Shown here one piece after another: positions 5,333 through 52,380 of a DNA stretch of 64,000 nt. Numbering within the stretch: the stretch's first letter is position 1; every line of letters starts with the position of its first letter. The DNA lies in assembly GCA_902794075.1 (NCBI GenBank), contig CADBGE010000001.1, forward strand, positions 76,603 to 140,602. Direction: 5' to 3'. This stretch comes from an uncultured Erysipelotrichaceae bacterium. GTDB lineage: Bacteria; Bacillota_I; Bacilli_A; RF39; UBA660. A program made the translations under genes and the position numbers. The notes beneath the pieces are model-generated. The model did not search any database. It saw only the letters and a program-made list of their open reading frames with translations, and was not told the DNA's origin.

Positions 5333-5918
5333 TCACAAAATCCAATACTTCATTTAATATATCATTCTTATTGCGAAACTTGTTGCCATCATTAACAACG
5401 ATTAACTTCTTATTTAATTGTGATTTTTCAAATATTTCATAGAACAAAGAAGTTTCTTTCATAATGTTGTTTTCATCATTTGAAATTGAATTACCATCAT
5501 CATTTTTTAGTGCCAACTCTGTAGAATTATTAATCAATTGAACATAATATACATTTTCTAATTTTGTGTAAAATTTACTATTGTCATTAATGAACAACTT
5601 AATGTCTTGTTCAATGCCATCAATCATATTAAATACATCATTCTTTTGGCGATTTCTATATAATGTTCCATAAACATATTCACCATACCAGGCTCTATTA
5701 AATATAATTAAATCACATACACCATAGTAATTTTCATTATATAATTTATTTATGTAACTATTAAACAATGCATCCTGATTTAAGTTTTGTTCATCAAGTG
5801 TTTTTCCTACAGGCTTTCCACAATGAATAATTAATGTATGACTACATAAATTTTTTAATTCATTTATCAAAGTATCCTTACCTGTACGGTCTGTTCCTTC
5901 AATTATAATTATTTTCAT
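5322..5918 (-). CDS. P-loop kinase, thymidylate/deoxynucleoside-kinase-like fold
   Basis: 198 aa. MKIIIIEGTDRTGKDT fits the IEGxDxxGK(S/T)T P-loop of the dTMP/dNK family. Substrate unknown. Lies directly downstream of the RNA ligase gene. Confidence 0.55.
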   Translation of the reverse strand: MKIIIIEGTDRTGKDTLINELKNLCSHTLIIHCGKPVGKTLDEQNLNQDALFNSYINKLYNENYYGVCDLIIFNRAWYGEYVYGTLYRNRQKNDVFNMIDGIEQDIKLFINDNSKFYTKLENVYYVQLINNSTELALKNDDGNSISNDENNIMKETSLFYEIFEKSQLNKKLIVVNDGNKFRNKNDILNEVLDFVNEK

Positions 5919-39651: not shown

Positions 39652-40035
39652 TGGTGGACCTTGAGGGAATCGAACCCTCGTCCAAGCAATTCAACCTATC
39701 AGCTTTCTACATGCTTGTTTCGTTCGTTAATTTCGGTAACAATCAGCCAAACGAACAAAACCGACCTTTTACCTATCTCATTATGTGAATCTACTCGACG
39801 GTATACTTGAGAGTCCTACCCCGTCCAGTCATCTGTAACAATGCGCTGTATATTCTTAAACCCAGTGACCAAATTTTTGAACCAGCGTCAAGCAGTCAAT
39901 CCTAGATCAAGCTGCGAGAGCAAAAGTATCTTCGCCATCTAAAAGTGTCAATCGAAAGTTTAAAGAGTTCTTCACGATCATTCCTCTGCATGCTTACCAA
40001 TTTGTCAACATTGCTGTCAAATCCAAGTAAGGCCC
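39652..40035 (-). ncRNA. ssrA: tmRNA (ssrA), phage-encoded, tag GEDTFALAA
   Basis: 5' GGGCCUUACUUGGAUUUGACAGC and ...GCAUGCAGAGG resemble the tmRNA consensus. 3' GGACGAGGGUUCGAUUCCCUCAAGGUCCACCA has a T-arm and an encoded CCA. The acceptor GGGCCUU/AAGGUCC contains G3:U70. The tag frame GGC GAA GAU ACU UUU GCU CUC GCA GCU UGA lies at 39936-39907. Confidence 0.9.
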
Positions 40036-43275: not shown

Positions 43276-43537
43276 AATCTTAAAATGTTTAATTTAAATT
43301 AGTTAATATATAATATTTATGTTTATTGTAATTATAATATAGAAAAGTAAAACTAAAAAATTTCAATATTTTAGGATTCTTTTTTCATATGTTCCATTAT
43401 TTTTTACTATGTTGATACCGTTAAACGGATGATTAGATGAATGTCCTTGAAGATCGTAATAGATCATATCATCATTATCATTATGATTAATCATATTATC
43501 ATGAATATTGTTTACACAAGTTAATTTTTAATTTTAG

Positions 43538-43609
43538 TTGCCTCGCCAGGATTCGAACCTGAACCAACAGCTCCAAAAACTGTTGTGCTTACCGTTACAC
43601 CATGAGGCA
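43538..43609 (-). tRNA. tRNA-Gln(TTG)
   Basis: 72 nt. Acceptor tgcctca/cgaggca, D arm gtgt-aacggtaa-gcac, anticodon arm acagt-ttTTGga-gctgt, T arm tcagg-ttcgaat-cctgg. Confidence 0.85.
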
Positions 43610-43620
43610 AAATAAAAAAT

Positions 43621-43815
43621 GTGAGTAGATTTACGAGCTACGGACTGTGAAGGATTTATGAACTTATCAACCTTCTCTGTTGCGTTGCCTCTTATGGCCT
43701 CTCACGATAACCAACACGTTTCATCAAGCGAGGATATATTCTCCAGTCTACATACAATAATTACACCGGTTCATTATCATACTTACACTGATCCTACTCA
43801 GTGGTCTATACTCAC
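43621..43815 (-). ncRNA. structured non-coding module (about 195 nt) closed by a terminal helix
   Basis: No credible ORF here. gtgagta (43621-43627) pairs with tactcac (43809-43815), and internal hairpins are present. Lies between the GIY-YIG gene and tRNA-Gln. Strand inferred from context. Confidence 0.3.
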
Positions 43816-43919
43816 ATTTTATATTTTCCATAATATATTCAAAGTGATGGTTAAACATCATCGCAAATTCACACGGATTAATACGATATCCTTTTAAGAC
43901 AAGTTGCTATATTATGGAT

Positions 43920-45035
43920 TTATTTTTTAAATGGTTTTCCAAATTTCCAACCATTATTTAAATATTCTTCAAATTTTTCTTTCGGTAATCTTATTACTTC
44001 ATCATCTTTATACATCCATTTTCTACCTTTATGTGGACTTGTTCCTTTTTGTTTCCAATGTTTATTTTTGTTTACTCCAACAAATTCTCCAGATATATAT
44101 CGTTTATCTGTTTTATCAACAAAAAATGTATTACCATTATTATCTTTAACGGCTACTTTATTTTTCATATATTCATAATCATTATTTCTAAATTTGATAA
44201 TTTCACCGGTTTTAAATCTTGGATCATTTTTATTAACTAATCCTAATTTATTTCCATTCTTGTCTATGGCAGGTATTTTGTTTTTGTAATATGATACAAA
44301 TTCACCAGATATATATCGTTCGTCTGTTTTATCAACAAAAAATACATTACCATTATTATCTTCAACAAGGATATGTGTTTTATAAAAATTACTATAATCT
44401 TTTTGTGACCCAATTTTTCGTTCAATTTTATTTTCTGTTTTTTCAGTTCGACCAATTTTATATCCTTTATCTAAATAATACTGTAATTTATCTTTTTGAA
44501 TAAATTTTGTTTCATCATCATTATGAATCCAAACTTTATTACTTGATGCAATTTTATGTTTTGTAGTGTCATTAACTTTAAAACCTTTGTTCCATCCATT
44601 AGATAAATATATTTCTAAATCTTCTCGTTTTATTCTTTTATTTATATAAACATTATTTTCAATTTTATAAATACAAACAGTATTATATTGAGAATTTTTT
44701 TCTCCTTTTTGTTTTTCAGAATTAATTTGTCCAATATGTTTTAACAGTTCTTCATCTAAATAATAACCACCAGGAACCATATTATAACAATTATTATCAT
44801 TAACTAATTCTTCTGTTACAATAGATTTTTCAAGTTGACAAAGCTCATTCCAATCATTACAGTATTGTATAATTTCTTTAGTAAAATTTTCTATACCGTA
44901 TTTTTTATAAGCCGCATGTAATCGTTTTCCAGAACCCATGTACCCATCATCTAAATTTGATGTTTTGTGAATTCCGTAATAAAAATGATTATTTACATTA
45001 TTTGTTATTTTATATAAATAAAAATATGTTTTCAT
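43920..45035 (-). CDS. GIY-YIG homing endonuclease (Seg-like)
   Basis: 371 aa. N-terminus YLYKITNNVNNHFYYGIHKT...GYMGSGKRLHAAYKKYGIENF is a GIY-YIG module. The C-terminal half is repetitive (FFVDKTDxRYISGEFV). Embedded in the tRNA array. Confidence 0.8.
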   Translation of the reverse strand: MKTYFYLYKITNNVNNHFYYGIHKTSNLDDGYMGSGKRLHAAYKKYGIENFTKEIIQYCNDWNELCQLEKSIVTEELVNDNNCYNMVPGGYYLDEELLKHIGQINSEKQKGEKNSQYNTVCIYKIENNVYINKRIKREDLEIYLSNGWNKGFKVNDTTKHKIASSNKVWIHNDDETKFIQKDKLQYYLDKGYKIGRTEKTENKIERKIGSQKDYSNFYKTHILVEDNNGNVFFVDKTDERYISGEFVSYYKNKIPAIDKNGNKLGLVNKNDPRFKTGEIIKFRNNDYEYMKNKVAVKDNNGNTFFVDKTDKRYISGEFVGVNKNKHWKQKGTSPHKGRKWMYKDDEVIRLPKEKFEEYLNNGWKFGKPFKK

Positions 45036-45095
45036 AATTAAAATCCATTAACCATTTATATATATAAAAATAAAATAATTAATGAAATAATTTTG

Positions 45096-45181
45096 TACCG
45101 GGAACAGGAATTGCACCTGCACTTCCTTCACAGGAAAACAGATTTTAAGTCTGTCGCGTCTACTTGTTTCGCCATCCCGGC
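45096..45181 (-). tRNA. tRNA-Leu(TAA), class II, non-canonical D and T loops
   Basis: 86 nt. Acceptor gccggga/tcccggt, anticodon arm acaga-ctTAAaa-tctgt, 17-nt variable arm. T loop is tgcaatt and the D loop aaacaagtaga lacks GG. Confidence 0.75.
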
Positions 45182-45195
45182 AGAGAATATTTTAG

Positions 45196-45267
45196 AGCCG
45201 CTACTCCGAATCGAACGGAGATCTCATGATTACAAGTCAAGCGTAATAACCTTTATACTATAGCGGC
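45196..45267 (-). tRNA. tRNA-Thr(TGT)
   Basis: 72 nt. Perfect acceptor gccgcta/tagcggc, anticodon arm cttga-ctTGTaa-tcatg (one U-U mismatch), T arm ctccg-ttcgatt-cggag. Confidence 0.75.
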
Positions 45268-45302
45268 AATTTATATAATTAATATAATAATGTTTTTATA
45301 AT

Positions 45303-45857
45303 TTATTCAAAGCATTCACTATATTTTTCAATATCTTCTACAGAAAAATATTTCTTATATTTCTCAAGAATTTTCAGTCCATGCTCATGAATATACTCAA
45401 GTAATGGATTTGAGTTCTTCAGTCCTCCTGATTCAAAATTATAAAAATATATTATTGCATCAAGATTATCAATAAAGTCACCTCTAACATCAATATCATT
45501 ACTAAATAGCCAATCAACAAAATCCTCATATAATTTATGATAACCATTCCAAGAACATATATTTCTATTCTTTCTATCTATATGTTTTGATTGATCCTTC
45601 ATTCTAATAAGATTTATTTCGTCATAACACAAAATTTCATCAAGTGCTATTTCAAAATTAAATTTAGAAAAAGGTCTTTTATCATTACTAAGATAAATGT
45701 GTATATGAGGTCTTTGCCTATCTCCGGCATTAGTTCCATGAACAGTAATATAATAATCTATTTTATTTAGTACAGGATATCCTATACTTGCCATTTCTAC
45801 TACATAATCCCATTCAGGATTGAACTGTTCATCCACGTATGTATTTAGATGTTTCAT
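45303..45857 (-). CDS. hypothetical protein with leader-like N-terminus
   Basis: 184 aa. Starts MKHLNTYVDE. Located between tRNA sub-clusters. Confidence 0.65.
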   Translation of the reverse strand: MKHLNTYVDEQFNPEWDYVVEMASIGYPVLNKIDYYITVHGTNAGDRQRPHIHIYLSNDKRPFSKFNFEIALDEILCYDEINLIRMKDQSKHIDRKNRNICSWNGYHKLYEDFVDWLFSNDIDVRGDFIDNLDAIIYFYNFESGGLKNSNPLLEYIHEHGLKILEKYKKYFSVEDIEKYSECFE

Positions 45858-45872
45858 TTTTATTATATTTTG

Positions 45873-45947
45873 TGGTCCCTGACGGCGCCGCCCCGTCCAC
45901 CCCGAAATTAAAAGTTTCGTGCTCTACTAATCATGAGCTAAGGAACC
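45873..45947 (-). tRNA. tRNA-Lys(TTT) with aberrant T loop
   Basis: 75 nt. Acceptor ggttcct/agggacc, anticodon arm cgaaa-ctTTTaa-tttcg. The T arm is gacgg-GGCGGCG-ccgtc (no TTC) and the D loop atgattagta lacks GG. Confidence 0.65.
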
Positions 45948-45953
45948 TATTTG

Positions 45954-46026
45954 AGCAGATGACGTGATTCGAACACGCAACTTTCAGATTGGAAATCTGA
46001 CGCTCTGCCAATTGAGTTACATCTGC
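45954..46026 (-). tRNA. tRNA-Trp(CCA)
   Basis: 73 nt. Acceptor gcagatg/catctgc, anticodon arm tcaga-ttCCAaa-tctga, T arm gcgtg-ttcgaat-cacgt. Confidence 0.85.
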
Positions 46027-46031
46027 AGCTG

Positions 46032-46115
46032 TGGGAGCGGGTCGACTCGAACGACCAGTCCAATTAAGGAATGGATTTACAGTCCATGCGGCTTCCAGTT
46101 ACCGGTTACGCTCCC
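46032..46115 (-). tRNA. tRNA-Tyr(GTA), class II
   Basis: 84 nt. Acceptor gggagcg/cgctccc, anticodon arm atgga-ctGTAaa-tccat, long variable arm, T arm ggtcg-ttcgagt-cgacc. Confidence 0.85.
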
Positions 46116-46130
46116 AATATTAAAGATTAG

Positions 46131-46296
46131 TCAGGTAAGATGGAATTGAACCACCACTAATATAAATTGATATTTTTAGATTTAGTACAATTAACATAAA
46201 CTACCAAATTCATATTACCTTTTATCCTTCCTGTACACACTATAGATAAAAACCTCCCATACCATCATGGGTGTGCTACCGTTACACCATTACCTG
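46131..46296 (-). ncRNA. tRNA-like gene with about 95-nt internal insertion, anticodon unassigned
   Basis: Perfect acceptor caggtaa/ttacctg, D arm gtgt-aacggta-gcac, T arm ggtgg-ttcaatt-ccatc. The anticodon-position hairpin cccat-gatggt-atggg has a 6-nt loop, and about 95 nt (two hairpins) lie between the variable-loop position and the T arm. Confidence 0.4.
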
Positions 46297-46301
46297 ATAT
46301 A

Positions 46302-46631
46302 TTATTCTTTAACGTCTTTAGACATAATAACTTCATCAGGATAAAATTCTAAAAATGTTTTAAGTACTTCATTATAAAATATATAAGTAACTAAGCCTTT
46401 TCTTGATGAAGTAATTGTTTTACTTAATGTGAAGTAATACTTTTCCGATTTGCCAATCATAGTCTTTCCAAGATCCCATACAATAATTGGTAAAACATTT
46501 CTATCGATCATATCAGAAATCTTTTTAATTATTTCATCAGATTTCATATTAGGTAAAGTACCATATATATGAATGATATTAGAACAATTAGATTTTGATT
46601 TTGTCTTAAATAATGAACTAAGAATATTCAT
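46302..46631 (-). CDS. hypothetical protein
   Basis: The track ORF 46302..46667 starts at a GTG that overlaps tRNA-Pro. The first ATG (MNILSSLFK...) is at 46631. Confidence 0.5.
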   Translation of the reverse strand: MNILSSLFKTKSKSNCSNIIHIYGTLPNMKSDEIIKKISDMIDRNVLPIIVWDLGKTMIGKSEKYYFTLSKTITSSRKGLVTYIFYNEVLKTFLEFYPDEVIMSKDVKE

Positions 46632-46652
46632 GATTAATTCTTTAAATATTTT

Positions 46653-46728
46653 TGGTAGGGTAAACACGGCTCGAACGTGCGACCTCTACATCCCAAATGT
46701 AGCATTCTACCTACTGAACTATTACCCT
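46653..46728 (-). tRNA. tRNA-Pro(TGG), CCA encoded
   Basis: 76 nt. Acceptor agggtaa/ttaccct, anticodon arm ctaca-ttTGGga-tgtag, T arm gcacg-ttcgagc-cgtgt, 3' ACCA. Confidence 0.85.
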
Positions 46729-46839
46729 TGGCGCCGCCTTACTTATATTTTTACATTCAGTATATATCCTGAACACTGGGGCCGTGCGGCATGTTCTTTA
46801 TGAAGCTTCTCCCCATCTATTGGCCGAATAGAGTATGTG

Positions 46840-46914
46840 CGGTGCGTACGGGACTCGAACCCGTGACCTCCTGCGTGACAGACAGGCATTCCAAACCAAC
46901 TGAACTAACGCACC
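46840..46914 (-). tRNA. tRNA-Asp(GTC)
   Basis: 75 nt. Acceptor ggtgcgt/acgcacc, anticodon arm cctgt-ctGTCac-gcagg, T arm acggg-ttcgagt-cccgt. Confidence 0.85.
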
Positions 46915-46920
46915 AAAATA

Positions 46921-46988
46921 TGTTTGATTTATCATCGTGCTACCGTTACACTAAGGAGTCGAACCTAATCTTATGATATAATCAAACA
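46921..46988 (-). ncRNA. permuted tRNA-like element: long closing helix + T arm + D arm, no acceptor stem
   Basis: Minus-strand RNA: tgtttgattatatcat-aaga-[ttagg ttcgact cctta]-[gtgt aacggta gcac]-g-atgataaatcaaaca. The ends pair over about 15 bp. The D-arm sequence is identical to that of element 46131..46296. Confidence 0.35.
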
Positions 46989-47019
46989 CCTTAAAAATTC
47001 ACGTGAACTTTAATTTTTG

Positions 47020-47088
47020 TGGGAAACAGAGGACTCGAACCTCCTAATAGATTGTGATTATCTGCAGTTTCAAAATCTAATACCACCC
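47020..47088 (-). ncRNA. tRNA-like element (canonical T arm, weak acceptor, no D arm)
   Basis: The 3' part is ggagg-ttcgagt-cctct-gtttccc-a. An upstream 6-bp stem tagatt/aatcta encloses 20 nt beginning ttGAAac (Phe-like). The 5' strand gggtggt pairs only with wobbles. Confidence 0.3.
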
Positions 47089-47153
47089 AATTTTAAATTC
47101 AATTATGTACACTCGTTGAATACAAATTTTGTGTAGAATCCCATATTTAAAAG

Positions 47154-47227
47154 TTGCGTGGGGTCAGATTCGAACTGACGACCTTCTGCTTATGAGACAG
47201 ACGAGCTGACCACTGCTCCACCCCGCA
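47154..47227 (-). tRNA. tRNA-Met(CAT) (fMet-like body, bulged acceptor)
   Basis: 74 nt. TGCGGGGTGGAGCAGTGGTCAGCTCG... closely resembles the E. coli tRNA-fMet 5' half. Anticodon arm tctgt-ctCATaa-gcaga, T arm gtcag-ttcgaat-ctgac. The acceptor 3' strand ccc-a-cgca has one bulged A. Confidence 0.65.
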
Positions 47228-47245
47228 ATATATTTATCTATTTAG

Positions 47246-47332
47246 ATGCCACCGAAGGAATCGAACCTCCACCCGAATCACCAGGGATGTACCTGCGGGT
47301 TCCCATGTGTATGCAGCTAACATACGGTGGCA
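47246..47332 (-). ncRNA. tRNA-like element, 87 nt, anticodon unassigned
   Basis: Acceptor tgccacc/ggtggca and T arm ggagg-ttcgatt-ccttc are canonical. The remainder (gtatg-ttagctg-catac hairpin, acccg...cgggt helix) does not fit a D/anticodon arm layout. Confidence 0.35.
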
Positions 47333-47380
47333 ATATAAAAAATTGAAATCCCTATAGGTAAATGTAAATCATCATTCATA

Positions 47381-47450
47381 ATCAATAGATGGGATTCGAA
47401 CCCATAATCTCTGAACGTTACAGCGGTAATACCGTTTGCCTAACTAATGA
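47381..47450 (-). ncRNA. tRNA-like element, 70 nt, anticodon unassigned, embedded in a longer closing helix
   Basis: Acceptor tcattag/ctattga (one U-U mismatch) and T arm atggg-ttcgaat-cccat. No 5+7+5 anticodon arm found. Flanks pair: ttgaaatc (47343-47350) with gatttcaa (47473-47480), and aatgtaaat with atttacatt. Confidence 0.35.
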
Positions 47451-47490
47451 CTGGTGAACAATCATTTACATTGATTTCAATTTTTATTTT

Positions 47491-47610
47491 AAAGTTGAAA
47501 TTCTTGCAAGATTGAATGCTTATCTCGGGATGATCTTCTGTCATCTCTGAGGTTGATTTTCCCCAGAACCATTATCAGTGTTCTACATCCGCATTCAAAA
47601 TTTCAACTTT
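47491..47610 (-). ncRNA. structured spacer module closed by a 20-bp interrupted helix
   Basis: aaagttgaaatt..ttgaatgc (47491-47520) pairs with gcattcaa-aatttcaacttt (47591-47610). Two internal hairpins: 7-bp tctgggg/cctcaga, and gatga/tcatc with a 7-nt loop. Confidence 0.3.
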
Positions 47611-47614
47611 ATTG

Positions 47615-47689
47615 TACTGCCAACGGGACTCGAACCCGTAATCTCCGCCGTGAAAGGGCGACGTCCTAAACCAATTAGACGATGGCAGC
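47615..47689 (-). tRNA. tRNA-Glu(TTC)
   Basis: 75 nt. Acceptor gctgcca/tggcagt (G1-U72), anticodon arm tcgcc-ctTTCac-ggcgg, T arm acggg-ttcgagt-cccgt. Confidence 0.8.
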
Positions 47690-47919
47690 ATATTGAGATT
47701 TCACAGTAATCTCAAAACTGTATACGTGAGCAATTTGATATGGAGTGTACTGCTCATTGATTCATGTTGTGATCTCAACAGTTATCTCTCCTGAATGGAA
47801 CATTATCCGGAATAATTCCAAACCATCGGACCTTACTCAGATTTGAATTACATCAGGGATCTCTCAGGAAAATTTCCGAGGCTGATTTGTATCTGCAATA
47901 AAACCAGCAAACATTTTTG

Positions 47920-47991
47920 CGCTTGTGGAGAATTACGATATCCCGACCTAGTGGTTAACAGCCACTCGCTCTACCTCTGAGCTACACAAGC
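47920..47991 (-). tRNA. tRNA-Asn(GTT) with unusual T loop
   Basis: 72 nt. Perfect acceptor gcttgtg/cacaagc, anticodon arm agtgg-ctGTTaa-ccact. T arm gggat-atcgtaa-ttctc (A at position 54, 53-61 unpaired). Confidence 0.7.
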
Positions 47992-48000
47992 ATATTTCAT

Positions 48001-48103
48001 AATCAACCGAACTTATCGTCACTTCATCGATAACATAGCACTTTGTGCCTCATTTATCATTACAAACAGAAGTTAGACTAAACAAAACGTTTAACTGTTG
48101 ATT
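48001..48103 (-). ncRNA. structured spacer module closed by a 7-bp helix
   Basis: aatcaac (48001-48007) pairs with gttgatt (48097-48103). Internal hairpin ttatcg/cgataa. Lies between tRNA-Asn and tRNA-Val. Confidence 0.25.
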
Positions 48104-48114
48104 ACGAAGTTTTG

Positions 48115-48189
48115 TGGGCAATGTTGGATTCGAACCAACGACCCCTTGCTTGTAAGGCAAGTGCTCTGAACCAGCTGAGCTAATTCCCC
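48115..48189 (-). tRNA. tRNA-Val(TAC)
   Basis: 75 nt. Acceptor ggggaat/attgccc (one G-G mismatch), anticodon arm cttgc-ctTACaa-gcaag, T arm gttgg-ttcgaat-ccaac. Confidence 0.8.
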
Positions 48190-48276
48190 AGAAAAGTGGT
48201 GTCCTAACAATTAAACGACAAATTTTAAAAAATTTGATTGAGTTCATACCCCAATATCTCCACCAAAATAATTTAC

Positions 48277-48385
48277 GAAACTGACATATTGAAATTCTGT
48301 GCAGTAAACCATGAATTGTAATTTAGTACGTTCTACTAAGTGCACCAATTATTCTAAGGTTAATTTCAACTTAGGTATCAGTTTC
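48277..48385 (-). ncRNA. structured spacer module closed by an 8-bp helix
   Basis: gaaactga (48277-48284) pairs with tcagtttc (48378-48385). A nested 8-bp helix ttgaaatt/aatttcaa and the hairpin tagta-cgttc-tacta are also present. Confidence 0.3.
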
Positions 48386-48386
48386 T

Positions 48387-48504
48387 AAATGAGAATAAAC
48401 AATACTTACGAATTGCCACCAATAAGCATCGTATAAAGAAATAAGGGAGTCTATAAGGAGGCAATTTTCTCTGCTTATACTTGCCTTTCATTCTATTCTC
48501 ATTT
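48387..48504 (-). ncRNA. structured spacer module closed by a 10-bp helix, pseudoknot-like interior
   Basis: aaatgagaat (48387-48396) pairs with attctcattt (48495-48504). Inside, aattgcc...ataagca...ggcaatt...tgcttat are interleaved 7-bp complements. Confidence 0.3.
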
Positions 48505-48506
48505 TG

Positions 48507-48595
48507 CGGAAGCTGAGGGATTCGAACCCCCGGAACCTTGTTAAGGCTCGCCGGTTTTCAAGACCGGTGCAATCGACCAACTCTGCCAAACTTCC
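48507..48595 (-). tRNA. tRNA-Ser(TGA), class II
   Basis: 89 nt. Acceptor ggaagtt/agcttcc, anticodon arm ccggt-ctTGAaa-accgg, long variable arm, T arm ggggg-ttcgaat-ccctc. Close to E. coli tRNA-Ser(UGA). Confidence 0.85.
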
Positions 48596-48911
48596 GTAAT
48601 ATTAAATAATATAAAAATAAGTGTGTTGTTAAACCAAAAAATCCATAGTGTTCTTATGAACGTATGTGATCTTGACCAGAACAACTAAGGCCATTATATC
48701 ACATTACTCAGGTTCCGCCTGAACTGTTCCTGCAACCTCTTTCACTATTTGTCATGGATTTGATTTCAGCTACTTGAGACAGTTCTGATACTTTCAGACA
48801 TAGTTACAATTTACTCTTTAAAAGATGGACACTTTCAATCCCACTTCCTTATTTATATTATCGTATTCAGTATTTCCAACATGTCAAAGAACTTTGTTTT
48901 GTTGTTTTTAT
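48596..48911 (-). ncRNA. promoter-proximal leader RNA upstream of tRNA-Ser (paralogue of 50467..50720)
   Basis: No credible ORF here. Shares the 15-mer ccaacatgtcaaaga (48876-48890), ttgtcatggattt (48749-48761) and gcaacctc (48732-48739), in the same order, with the 50.5-50.7 kb segment. Preceded by a consensus promoter. Confidence 0.35.
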
Positions 48912-48917
48912 ATAATC

Positions 48918-48946
48918 AATATATAAATGATTATATGAAAATTCAA
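48918..48946 (-). promoter_or_regulatory. sigma-70-like promoter TTGAAT-N17-TATATT
   Basis: Minus strand: TTGAAT (48946-48941), 17 nt, TATATT (48923-48918). Drives the leader RNA / tRNA-Ser sub-cluster. Confidence 0.55.
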
Positions 48947-49004
48947 ACTTTTTTAATTTTTTGCACCCGAAGTGAAACTCGTCATCTCAGCAAAATATTT
49001 TAAG

Positions 49005-49079
49005 TGGACCCAGAGGGTCATGATCCCCCGACCTTGACATTATGAGTGTCCTGCTCTATACCAACTGAGCTATGGGTCC
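49005..49079 (-). tRNA. tRNA with CAT anticodon (Met or Ile2), unusual T loop
   Basis: 75 nt. Perfect acceptor ggaccca/tgggtcc, anticodon arm ggaca-ctCATaa-tgtca (27-43 mismatch), T arm ggggg-atcatga-ccctc (A at position 54). Confidence 0.65.
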
Positions 49080-49960
49080 TATTTCATTTTTCTACCTTTT
49101 ATCCAACCGTTGTTAATATAATCATTAAGTTCTTCTTTTTTAATTTTTATATTAATTGGTTTATTATTTTCATCAAATTTATAAATCCAGCATGTCCCGT
49201 ATTGTGAATTATTTTTACCCTTACCGTGATTTATTAATTTATATGTTTCTTTTTGTTTTTTAATTGATTCAGGTTTATGTTTTCTTCCAGTCCATATACA
49301 TTTTAATTCTCCAGATAAATATCTTGGATCATCAACTGAAACAGAATAATAATTTCCGTTTTTATCTTTTACAGATACTTTATTTTTTCCTAAAGCAATA
49401 TATTCACCAGATATATATCTTGGATCATCAACTGAAACAGAATAATAATTTCCATTTTTATCTTTTACTGTTATTTTGTTTTTTGTTAAAGCTTCATAAA
49501 TTTCTTTGTTATATTCTTCCTTTTTTATCATCAAATGTTCTCCTGTTGATTTTATTTTTACAGGAATTAAACCTTTTGTTGATGGTGTGTATTCACCGCT
49601 CATATATTTTGGATCATTTTTTGAACATCTAAAATAGTTTCCGTCTTTATCTTTTACAGGCACAGAACCATACGTATTCCATCCTTTTCCGCCACATTGA
49701 ATATTATAACATTCAGGATCATGAACTAAATCTTCTGTAACAATTTCAGATTCATATTGATATGCCTCATTTATAGTATTAAAATATTTTAATATTTCTT
49801 TACTAAAGTTTTCAATACCATATTTCTTATATGCATATTTTAATCTTGTGCCTGAACCCATATATCCATCATCTAAATTATCTGTACAATGTACACCATA
49901 ATAAAAATGATTATTTATATTATTTGTTATTTTATAGAAATAATTGTATTTTCTTTTCAT
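49079..49960 (-). CDS. GIY-YIG homing endonuclease (Seg-like), second copy
   Basis: The track ORF starts at TTG 49969. The ATG at 49960 gives MKRKYNYFYKITNNINNHFYYGVHCT...GYMGSG...YGIENF. The TAG stop abuts the tRNA 5' end. C-terminal repeats KDKNGNYYSVSVDDPRY(I/L)SGE. Confidence 0.8.
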   Translation of the reverse strand: MKRKYNYFYKITNNINNHFYYGVHCTDNLDDGYMGSGTRLKYAYKKYGIENFSKEILKYFNTINEAYQYESEIVTEDLVHDPECYNIQCGGKGWNTYGSVPVKDKDGNYFRCSKNDPKYMSGEYTPSTKGLIPVKIKSTGEHLMIKKEEYNKEIYEALTKNKITVKDKNGNYYSVSVDDPRYISGEYIALGKNKVSVKDKNGNYYSVSVDDPRYLSGELKCIWTGRKHKPESIKKQKETYKLINHGKGKNNSQYGTCWIYKFDENNKPINIKIKKEELNDYINNGWIKGRKMK

Positions 49961-50032
49961 AATGTTCAATGATATTTTATATATATTTATATTGAACTAT
50001 ATAATTAAAAATAATAAATTATTTCTAATTAG

Positions 50033-50106
50033 TAGGGATGATGGGTACTGCCCCCACTATCTCGAATTTATAAGATTCGCGCTTCTACTGTCTAAGCTAC
50101 ATCCCA
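50033..50106 (-). tRNA. tRNA-Ile(TAT) with aberrant T loop
   Basis: 74 nt. Anticodon arm cgaat-ctTATaa-attcg, acceptor gggatg/catccc (6 bp plus a terminal U-U). T arm gtggg-GGCAGTA-cccat, and the D loop agacagtag lacks GG. Confidence 0.6.
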
Positions 50107-50113
50107 ATGTTTG

Positions 50114-50187
50114 TGGAGCCATGGGGAGTCGAACCCCAGACCTTCTGCGTGCAAAGCAGACGCTCTACCAAACTGAGCTATGACCCC
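50114..50187 (-). tRNA. tRNA-Ala(TGC)
   Basis: 74 nt. Acceptor ggggtca/tggctcc with G3:U70, anticodon arm tctgc-ttTGCac-gcaga, T arm tgggg-ttcgact-cccca. Confidence 0.85.
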
Positions 50188-50190
50188 ATA

Positions 50191-50382
50191 AAAGTAAAAT
50201 GTTCTACACGCTCTGACTTTCACAGATACCCTCTAAAGATTTTAAAATCTCCCTTTAGCAAGGATTCCTTACCAAATATACAGATGCAACTCTGCCCCTT
50301 GCTTCCGCTCCATCACAGGCATACTTTATCAGCAGACGGTAAGATCTCTAATAAATTTCCTGTACCTCGAACTATTTACTTT
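50191..50382 (-). ncRNA. structured spacer module (about 190 nt) closed by an 8-bp helix
   Basis: aaagtaaa (50191-50198) pairs with tttacttt (50375-50382). Internal palindrome agattttaaaatct flanked by ctaaag/ctttag. Lies between tRNA-Leu(TAG) and tRNA-Ala. Confidence 0.3.
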
Positions 50383-50385
50383 TTG

Positions 50386-50466
50386 TACCCCATCTCCGAC
50401 TCGAACGGAGACCCAGTAAAGGATGGCTTCTAAGGCCACTGACTATACCAATTCGTCTAATGGGGT
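50386..50466 (-). tRNA. tRNA-Leu(TAG), class II
   Basis: 81 nt. Acceptor accccat/atggggt, anticodon arm gtggc-ctTAGaa-gccat, 12-nt variable arm, T arm ctccg-ttcgagt-cggag. Confidence 0.8.
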
Positions 50467-50720
50467 ATCTTATCTCAAACACTGAGGCTGTGAACCCTCT
50501 TGGATGTTCTCACCTGGCAACCTCCACAACTTGCCTTCACAAACAGCACCAAACAATTGTTTGAGATTTGTTTAGCACTCAAGGGAGCTTTTGTCATAGG
50601 GATTTCGCGTACTAATTTCCAAATGACTACTTGCATTATCCCAGGAATGCAAAAAGTTCTTTGTTTATCGGTACCAACATGTCAAAGACCTTAGTTATAA
50701 TGATTATTCAAATCATTTAC
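50467..50720 (-). ncRNA. promoter-proximal leader RNA upstream of tRNA-Leu(TAG) (paralogue of 48596..48911)
   Basis: Contains ccaacatgtcaaaga (50674-50688), ttgtcatagggattt (50591-50605) and gcaacctc (50527-50534). Hairpins ttgcatt/aatgcaa and a 9-bp atctcaaac/gtttgagat helix are present. The track ORFs here are implausible. Confidence 0.35.
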
Positions 50721-50726
50721 AATTAT

Positions 50727-50755
50727 AATATATAAATACCACAGAGAAAATTTAA
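50727..50755 (-). promoter_or_regulatory. sigma-70-like promoter TTAAAT-N17-TATATT
   Basis: Minus strand: TTAAAT (50755-50750), 17 nt, TATATT (50732-50727), at the head of the 50.7-49.0 kb RNA/tRNA/GIY-YIG unit. Confidence 0.55.
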
Positions 50756-50810
50756 ATGCTAAATTGTTAAAATATATAAAAATTTTAGATACTCAATTTT
50801 TGAAGTTTAC

Positions 50811-50845
50811 TGAAAAAATTTAGGGAACCCTGATTGAGGATTCCC
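50811..50845 (-). terminator. terminator candidate
   Basis: Hairpin gggaacc (50823-50829) / ggattccc (50838-50845), followed on the minus strand by a T-run (plus-strand aaaaaa at 50813-50818). Confidence 0.4.
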
Positions 50846-51046
50846 TTATGAAGTGGTATTCAATATTCTTAAGTTTTACGGAATCCTCAGTACACTTACA
50901 TACGCTTCTGGTAATGATATGTTTGTATCATTATTGAGTTGTGATTTTGATATGTATGTATAAAGTTTCATCCTTTGTTGTTTTATATAATATATATAAA
51001 AATATAAATTTCTTAAAGAAAAATTCAAAATTTTGCTAAAAAATAA

Positions 51047-51349
51047 TTAAAATCCTTCATCTCTTAACCATTCCTTTGCATGACGAACGATAAGTGCATC
51101 AATATCGCGACGATCACTAGCATTTTTATACTTATGCTCAAGCCATTCGAGACCATCATAATCATATAAGAAGTTCTCAAGGAAGTCTTCAATGTCATCG
51201 CCATCAGCAAGAGACATAACAACGGTCTCTACCCATTCCTTACCGTCTGTTTCATAATTTGAATCAAGAACATCCATATATACTTCATATAAATATTCGA
51301 GATCATCTTGACTTATGGATTCATTGATGTATTCTATTAAACTTTTCAT
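51047..51349 (-). CDS. small acidic protein with MKSL leader
   Basis: 100 aa. Starts MKSLIEYINE. Very Asp/Glu-rich. Confidence 0.65.
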   Translation of the reverse strand: MKSLIEYINESISQDDLEYLYEVYMDVLDSNYETDGKEWVETVVMSLADGDDIEDFLENFLYDYDGLEWLEHKYKNASDRRDIDALIVRHAKEWLRDEGF

Positions 51350-52215: not shown

Positions 52216-52231
52216 TTGTGTTTTCTTTTTG

Positions 52232-52380
52232 TACCCCAGGTGCGATTCGAACGCACAACTTACGGCTTAGTTCTCGTGTAAGGAATTGAACCTTTATTTT
52301 ACCTGGTCACGAGATTTTGAATTTTTCGTAAAATTCTAACGTAAGAAGGCCGTTACTCTTTCCAATTGAGTTACTGGGGC
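52232..52380 (-). tRNA. tRNA-Arg(TCT) gene interrupted by a 75-nt insertion in the anticodon loop
   Basis: 5' part 52380-52344: gccccag-ta-actc-aattggaaa-gagt-a-acggc-cttct. 3' part 52268-52232: aa-gccgt-aagtt-gtgcg-ttcgaat-cgcac-ctggggt-a. Joined, the loop reads CUUCUAA as in E. coli tRNA-Arg(UCU). The insertion is 52343-52269. Confidence 0.7.

Follow-up and report, generated by a model that had tools for sequence, protein, structure and literature searches.

Helix-closed spacer modules of probable mixed origin in the tRNA array of a megaphage contig

Are the long spacers between the transfer RNA (tRNA) genes of a phage array structured RNAs, and if so where do they come from? The question is raised by a stretch of 64,000 nucleotides (nt) of contig CADBGE010000001.1 (C1:76603-140602), hereafter the window, in which many of these spacers have complementary ends. 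An earlier note on this DNA, made from the letters alone, had proposed that every long spacer folds into a module closed by a terminal helix and that the modules form a family of small phage RNAs. The reading preferred here, at a probability of about 0.6, is that the spacers are co-transcribed, helix-closed RNA units of several origins which are released in tRNA processing, like species 1 and 2 of phage T4. The helices go beyond chance, are orthologous in two other lineages and are kept by compensatory or pair-preserving substitutions on the tRNA-sense strand.

Contig C1 has a size of 400,076 base pairs (bp) and a GC content of 29%. It codes for a T4-type topoisomerase II, an NAD-dependent DNA ligase, an RNA ligase and tail fibre proteins. 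Copies at least 99.9% identical to C1 were found in four other assemblies or samples, one of them a contig of 400,026 bp. On the basis of the gene content and this near-identical copy C1 was read as the genome of a megaphage, complete or almost so, which had been binned into a bacterial metagenome-assembled genome (MAG) of 1.8 Mb. ARAGORN and Rfam predict 17 tRNA genes and a transfer-messenger RNA (tmRNA) gene on the minus strand, from 39.6 to 50.5 kb. Two tRNA genes missed by ARAGORN (Asn 47920-47991 and an Ile-like gene at 50033-50106) are added by Rfam, and neither is listed in the earlier note. The array includes GIY-YIG endonuclease genes and is interrupted by three homing-endonuclease-like open reading frames (ORFs).

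Terminal helices and their conservation

The four modules at the centre of the analysis, and the tRNA gene that bounds one of them, are as follows.

M1, 47490..47611, minus strand: 122 nt; 15-bp terminal stem (47611-47597 / 47504-47490) with inner helices next to it; arms AAGUUGAAAUU / UCUUGCAAGAAUUUCAA, matching P8 of a group I intron family
M2, 47996..48108, minus strand: 113-nt four-way junction with a 12-bp closing stem (48108-48097 / 48007-47996) and three arms; spacer between tRNA-Val and tRNA-Asn
tRNA-Asn(GUU), 47920..47991, minus strand: Rfam tRNA, 54.1 bits, missed by ARAGORN; bounds M2
M3, 48277..48385, minus strand: outer 10-bp stem GAAACUGAUA / UGUCAGUUUC (48385-48376 / 48286-48277), relic of intron P7; inner 9-bp stem UUGAAAUU / AAUUUCAA (48370-48362 / 48296-48288), relic of intron P8
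M4, 48387..48504, minus strand: 13-bp closing stem (48504-48492 / 48399-48387), AAAAUGAGAAU ... AUUCUCAU; begins 1 nt past tRNA-Ser; homologue of intron P6

All complementary ends listed in the earlier note exist as RNA helices of the minus strand, which is also the tRNA-sense strand. Most are longer than the lengths given there, the closing stems of M1 to M4 being 10 to 15 bp. None of the spacer ORFs exceeds 65 amino acids (aa); the earlier note had seen none that was credible. No tRNA match was found in M1 to M4 at E values up to 5, nor with introns allowed.

Chance pairing was assessed in 2504 nt of spacers using stems spanning 40 to 220 nt, with 400 shuffle trials and 300 trials on real segments. 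Eighteen stems of at least 9 bp were observed compared to 14.3 in shuffles (P=0.18). Complementarity of 7 to 10 bp by itself is at chance level in DNA of 29% GC, and the earlier caution about chance pairing in AT-rich DNA was well placed. Stems of at least 12 bp numbered five, whereas shuffles gave 0.46 and real segments drawn at random from the contig gave 0.68. This is an enrichment of about tenfold, and five such stems were reached in none of the 400 shuffle trials and none of the 300 random-segment trials. Fold z-scores against dinucleotide shuffles were -4.5 for M1, -2.4 for M2, -2.3 for M3 and -2.9 for M4. In total the tRNA-sense strand folds at -418 kcal/mol versus -354 kcal/mol for the antisense strand, and many G-U pairs are found on the sense strand. 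The advantage of 64 kcal/mol together with the G-U pairs argues for structure in RNA and not in DNA.

A 109-aa ORF of the array led, via a protein collection, to two independent lineages which share the spacers. The first, L026, is a ruminant contig of 274 kb (also GCA_017635555.1), and the second, L049, is a Logan contig of 5.8 kb. Three further lineages and a 781-kb contig cover the array's downstream part. The 109-aa protein had no match in JGI metagenomes and GTDB genomes, and a search with a SprT-like protein gave no match. Pattern searches of IMG/VR returned either no matches or two unrelated matches of 25 nt. The latter are exact copies of the tRNA-Glu/M1 junction (ACAATAAAGTTGAAATTTTGAATGC) in two otherwise unrelated contigs (L037 670-694 and L038 10463-10487), with no tRNA nearby. 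The endonuclease family has more than 2000 relatives, in non-syntenic arrays. The arrays of the relatives are mosaics in which endonuclease genes, tRNAs and modules have been gained, lost and moved.

The modules are present in L026 and L049 with substitutions that keep pairing, in agreement with the earlier proposal. Spacers are 94-99% identical in these two lineages and are often better conserved than the adjacent genes. M2 is 95-98% identical, and M2 and the stretch 48190-48276 together show 94-98%, compared to only about 65% for the neighbouring tRNA-Val. Across the three lineages all five internal substitutions of M2 fall in predicted pairs and keep the pairing. Two are double changes; the changes include an A-U / G-U / G-C series and a double change from G-C to A-U. 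In M3 two double compensatory changes separate the window from L026, one in the outer stem (C-G to U-A) and one in the inner stem (A-U to U-A), while its interior is not alignable between the two. M1 has an identity of 87% in L026 and 99% in L049, and its stems are invariant except for one change from G-C to G-U. For M4 the terminal hairpin alone persists in L026, with about 80 nt of the interior absent. This pair-preserving evolution shows that at least M2, M3 and two further spacers described below (50188-50384 and 46130-46296) are constrained as RNA.

A covariance model of M2 matched only the three lineage copies. It found none in the MAG, in an IMG/VR relative of 193 kb or in ten loci, T4 among them. 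No known family matches M2, which also has no similarity to the introns.

The tRNA-Val(UAC) gene at 48114-48189 (minus strand) is 80-92% identical to tRNA-Val in nearly all of 200 sampled genomes of the MAG's family, and was the sole match of the array in those genomes. At this site, between near-identical spacers, L026 and L049 have another tRNA-Val, which is about 65% identical. A tRNA-Val lying between conserved spacers appears to indicate a swapped allele; the difference looks like allele replacement, possibly by capture from the host.

Similarity of M4, M3 and M1 to group I introns

From the arms of M3 and M1, BLAST matches led on to conserved elements of greater length in L026 and in G001, an IMG/VR relative. 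The element of G001 sits in the anticodon loop of tRNA-Arg(UCU). The Rfam model Intron_gpI matches this element (locus L002, 6322-6703; E 5e-6, 30.8 bits, below the curated cut-off of 50). Two more copies of the intron, on contig C4 of the same MAG, split tRNA-Ser(UGA) and tRNA-Arg(UCU).

Apparently intact group I introns, C4 23340-23930, C4 35860-36560 and L002 6299-6840: in anticodon loops of megaphage-type tRNA arrays

The four intron copies align. In the Rfam alignment P6 is AAAAUGAGAAU ... AUUCUCAUAAU and the 5' strand of P7 is GAGACUGA. The extended P8 is ACCUAAGUUGAAAUU ... CUUGCAAGAAUUUCAAUAUGG, whose variable interior measures 75-90 nt across the four introns, and J8/7 with the 3' strand of P7 is AAAGAGACAGUCC. 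Window positions 48514-48268 are collinear with P6-P7-P8, with z-scores of 11.5 and 11.2 for the introns of L026 and G001 respectively and 4.6-5.8 for those of C4. The collinear alignment of M1 with intron P8 gave z-scores of 5.8-9.3. Fourteen other segments (13 array spacers and the insert of a tRNA-Arg) gave z-scores of about 0 against the introns. With nhmmer and an intron profile the arms alone were detected, at an E value of about 0.03. M4 aligns in collinear blocks with P6 of the L026 intron, interior pieces included. In M3 the J7/3-P3' and J8/7 segments are deleted relative to the intron.

On the collinear z-scores, against values of about 0 in the controls, M4 is the P6 hairpin. M3 is P7+P8+P7', drawn together into a single long hairpin once the P3 3' strand and J8/7 were lost, and M1 is a lone P8-type hairpin of the same family. 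Two or three of the modules are leftover hairpins of a self-splicing intron.

No Intron_gpI match was found in window positions 43300-51100 at E values up to 5, and the same model finds the relative's intron. No sequence upstream of P6 survives in the window, and P1-P5, the P3 3' strand, J8/7 and P9 are missing. M4 and M3 lie between a complete tRNA-Ser (54.7 bits, upstream) and a complete tRNA-Val (downstream) and not inside a gene. As the window has neither the core strands nor anything from upstream of P6, and no intron by Rfam, these elements are relics which cannot splice. The comparison shows that M4, M3 and M1 descend from the group I intron family but are not members of it. The same relic is found at the same place in L026 and it therefore predates the split of the two lineages; its stems have been kept since then.

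A functional intron in permuted or split form, its 3' half being M4-M3 and its 5' half the Asn-Glu spacer, was considered and rejected, as that spacer has no similarity to the introns (z about 0) and core strands are missing. Between a 5' fragment of tRNA-Ser and a degenerate intron copy, L026 carries TTTGAATATAAATAGCGTCCGGGCTATATCCCGGCAT, about 40 nt, twice in tandem (5490-5575). In the paper library that was searched, group I introns are not reported for the tRNA genes of phages, megaphages included.

Other spacers and the tRNA array

The remaining spacers differ in structure and conservation.

M3/tRNA-Val stretch, 48190..48276, minus strand: 87 nt, conserved (94% identical in L026); no significant fold or closing helix
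Asn-Glu spacer, 47690..47919, minus strand: chain of hairpins, z -1.8
Module with tRNA-like core, 47338..47485, minus strand: interrupted terminal stem of about 30 bp, with a 13-bp stem; T-arm AUGGGUUCGAAUCCCAU
Leu-Ala module, 50188..50384, minus strand: 197 nt, multi-hairpin, 9-bp closing stem (50383-50375 / 50198-50190); between tRNA-Leu(UAG) and tRNA-Ala
Asp-Pro spacer, 46729..46838, minus strand: three hairpins; ends ...GGCGGCGCCA directly before tRNA-Pro; no closing helix
tRNA-like RNA, 46130..46296, minus strand: acceptor stem, D-arm, 6-nt 'anticodon' loop, insert of about 100 nt at the variable-arm position, T-arm
Two helix-closed modules upstream of tRNA-Gln, 43612..43918, minus strand: 43918-43827 (11-bp stem) and 43820-43616 (12-bp stem, 43820-43809 / 43627-43616)

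The tRNA-like RNA at 46130-46296 is present in seven lineages including the 781-kb contig. It has 56 consensus pairs, eight of them with double compensatory changes. The Leu-Ala module (fold z of 50384-50188: -2.65) is 93% identical in L026, and its sense strand folds 22 kcal/mol better than the antisense. Thirteen of its 18 variable columns are unpaired and all five paired-site changes keep the pair. The Asp-Pro spacer is 96-100% identical in six lineages with differing flanks, and its variable sites lie mostly in hairpin loops. The end ...GGCGGCGCCA described in the earlier note is invariant in the six lineages; the 5-6-bp stem described with it is a 3-bp hairpin at best. The Asn-Glu spacer is 96% identical to L026 over 187 nt, and all three of its paired-site changes preserve pairing.

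The module with a tRNA-like core lies in a region of strong folding (47489-47229, z -4.1) and is absent from L026 and L049. The segments 47247-47332 and 46920-46989 also hold tRNA pieces. No homologue of the two modules upstream of tRNA-Gln was found in relatives. No Rfam family was found for any spacer at the gathering threshold or at E values up to 5, so that the search suggested in the earlier note assigned none. The weak Rfam matches DUF2693 and sX4 were rejected as far below threshold.

Most tRNAs of the array have no encoded CCA and are followed by CAAAA instead. They match Lak megaphage tRNAs at 77-81%. A scan for promoters and terminators gave no excess over shuffle expectation. The tmRNA (39652-40035, minus strand, 118.8 bits, tag peptide GEDTFALAA) is located about 3.5 kb downstream of the tRNA array. 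In tRNA-Lys(UUU) (45872-45947, minus strand), called by ARAGORN alone, GGCGGCG replaces the usual T-loop. Its GGCGGCGCC motif recurs at the end of the conserved Asp-Pro spacer (46729-46740, minus strand). The anticodon loop of the tRNA-Arg(UCU) gene at 52231-52380 (minus strand) has an insert of 75 nt, and immediately upstream of the gene lies a near-consensus promoter, TTGAAA-17-TATAAT. The insert contains a T-arm-like hairpin, closed by a 7-bp helix, and has no similarity to the group I introns which split the same tRNA in relatives. For some array ORFs in close and distant relatives TAG must be read as glutamine (L049 249-1094; also L044 and L047). The long ORFs of the window are open under the standard code, so that phages of this group appear not to share one genetic code.

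Possible origins and roles of the modules

Under the preferred reading the array would be pieced together from tRNA genes, GIY-YIG endonuclease genes and non-coding stretches made of self-contained RNA folding units. The units would comprise intron hairpins (M4, M3 and M1), tRNA-like RNAs and conserved structured RNAs with no known relatives (M2, 50188-50384 and 46729-46838). Each would be helix-closed because it descends from, or is itself, an independent RNA domain, and the shared architecture therefore needs no single family. The one RNA family of the earlier note accordingly gives way to a set in which M4 and M3 correspond to intron P6 and P7-P8, M1 is P8-type, others are tRNA-like and M2 stands alone.

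The array would be transcribed as long precursors with the modules and tRNAs together. A cut by ribonuclease (RNase) P at the 5' end of the next tRNA and a 3' endonuclease cut behind the previous one would free the modules. Closing stems would then shield them from exonucleases and leave stable RNAs of 90-200 nt. The minimum role may be insulation, in which AU-rich spacer RNA folds on itself and does not disturb the folding and processing of the tRNAs.

Several points weigh against this reading. The stretches 46729-46838, 48190-48276 and 48596-49003 have no closing helix, so that the earlier claim for every long spacer fails, and their folds are not exceptional (z +0.3, +0.14 and -1.0, respectively). 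The interior of M1 has two broken pairs in L026. Covariation in M1 to M4 rests on few events and on two independent relatives. High spacer identity could reflect recent gene conversion in an endonuclease-rich recombination mosaic and not purifying selection. The modules derived from intron relics may simply be young debris.

A bolder version of the preferred reading, which is tentative at best, is a modular 'RNA operon'. Pieces of dead introns and tRNAs, together with new RNAs (M2, 46729-46838 and 50188-50384), would be re-used as functional helix-closed units. Possible roles are punctuation which enforces ordered folding and cutting of the long tRNA precursor, or action in trans, as small RNAs or as mimics of tRNA, for example decoys for host defences that target tRNAs.

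Evolutionary debris is the strongest rival explanation because the array is visibly in flux, and it is considered unlikely. The spacers would be dead intron pieces and tRNA pseudogenes left by endonuclease-driven rearrangement, structured by ancestry and with no present role. The intron descent of M4, M3 and M1 without a catalytic core fits this explanation. So do the turnover of modules between lineages (47338-47485, absent in L026 and L049, and the M4 interior, absent in L026), tRNA fragments in relatives such as L026 5404-5446, and the three homing-endonuclease-like ORFs that interrupt the array. Debris would not be expected to show the double compensatory changes in M2 and the M3 stems, or the substitutions in the 50384 module which avoid or preserve pairs. 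The near-identity of 46729-46838 over six lineages with differing flanks, and spacers more conserved than the neighbouring tRNA-Val, also count against it.

Less probable is the explanation that the terminal helices are RNase III-type processing stems, which separate the tRNAs of a long precursor and carry irrelevant interiors. The processing stems of rRNA and the sites in T7 early mRNA are separators of this type, and an RNase III processing stem would be expected to have double-stranded RNA, nearly continuous, over about two turns. With internal loops included, M1, M3 and 47338-47485 have stems of about 20-30 bp, the stems of M3 and M4 are conserved while their interiors vary or vanish, and an RNase III gene is present in the MAG (contig C11). 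RNase III may process the longest stems. The closing stems of M2, M4 and the 50384 module are just 9-13 bp, short for the enzyme, and conservation extends to the loops and interiors of M2, the 50384 module and 46729-46838. RNase III is not normally needed to release tRNAs, which RNase P and 3' nucleases set free. The phage contig gave no match to RNase III, and the MAG is only a possible host.

Inverted repeats acting at the DNA level are very improbable. These would be the ends of elements resembling miniature inverted-repeat transposable elements (MITEs), or recognition or recombination sites of homing endonucleases. Three modules within 1.1 kb share TTGAAAT / ATTTCAA arms, about five such pairs being expected over the 400 kb as a whole. 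The arm borders show presence/absence polymorphism, and endonuclease genes are nearby. Descent from intron P8 accounts for the shared arms, those of the remaining modules are unrelated, as are these modules to one another, and no target-site duplications were seen. The G-U pairs and the sense-strand advantage indicate RNA, and cruciform extrusion is unlikely with arms 65-180 nt apart. A MITE-like element was also rejected as a candidate, since the arms are common to the three intron-derived modules only and the six other arm-motif pairs on the 400-kb contig compare to about five expected by chance. Chance pairing in AT-rich DNA is hardly credible as a general explanation: it is largely refuted for M1 to M4 by the tenfold excess of stems of at least 12 bp, fold z-scores down to -4.5 and the compensatory changes in relatives, and it remains the default for isolated 9-bp stems, since stems of 9-10 bp are equally common in shuffles and random contig segments and 46729-46838 and 48190-48276 fold no better than shuffles.

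Among known systems the closest in layout are T4 species 1 and 2, and here the likeness drawn in the earlier note extends to the arrangement of the cluster and not to sequence homology. For some 50 years the small RNAs of the T4 tRNA cluster have lacked an explanation. In the T4 locus (L039) rnaC and rnaD lie within the tRNA cluster beside the GIY-YIG gene segB and directly adjoin tRNAs. They are structured non-coding RNAs of 119-139 nt. The window modules are likewise structured and non-coding, within a phage tRNA cluster and on the tRNA strand. rnaC has a terminal helix and a tRNA-type T-arm, as do 47338-47485 and 46130-46296. No sequence similarity was found, and the M2 model has no match in the T4 locus; in the test for homology the T-arm of rnaC and of some window modules was the sole point of likeness seen. 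T4 has two such RNAs compared to about a dozen modules in the window. The group I intron descent of several window modules is not known for the T4 RNAs, and stability and processing have been shown for T4 only. The function of rnaC and rnaD is still unknown (PMC3014915, PMC9697503).

Other systems share single features with the modules. Group I introns (Rfam RF00028) occur in the anticodon loops of bacterial tRNAs such as cyanobacterial tRNA-Leu and Azoarcus tRNA-Ile. The introns of the related contigs are likewise in tRNA-Arg(UCU) and tRNA-Ser(UGA), and M4, M3 and M1 share the P6, P7 and P8 sequences of these introns in order, but the window pieces lie between genes and not within a tRNA. For Lak megaphages Devoto et al. 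(2019, PMC6784885) reported 'enigmatic' introns in tRNAs and intergenic regions with high expression. The setting is that of the window, AT-rich gut or rumen megaphages with about 30 tRNAs, and the 75-nt insert in the window's tRNA-Arg(UCU) resembles their 'enigmatic introns'. The inserts in that paper are inside tRNAs, and no helix-closed inter-tRNA modules or group I intron remnants are described in it. The YrlA Y RNAs have a long terminal stem formed from both ends and a tRNA-like domain (PMC4201824). The module 47338-47485 has both features, but its long stem stacks under an acceptor-like stem and does not replace the anticodon stem. A Y RNA was rejected for this module, as Ro60/TROVE (PF05731) is absent from all 129 contigs of phage and MAG (control genomes were positive) and there is no Rfam match to YrlA.

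The modules resemble the T4 tRNA-cluster RNAs in layout and are not one new RNA family. The array is a richer case than T4, with a dozen units whose origins are partly traceable. One route by which spacer RNAs in phage tRNA arrays may arise is the decay of tRNA-borne group I introns and of tRNAs, with the helices then kept by selection. The analysis further indicates that ordinary group I introns make up a part of the 'enigmatic' tRNA introns in gut megaphages. M2, 46729-46838 and 50188-50384 are concrete candidate RNAs, and if the 'RNA operon' version is true the intron-derived hairpins would be an exapted class of phage RNA elements.

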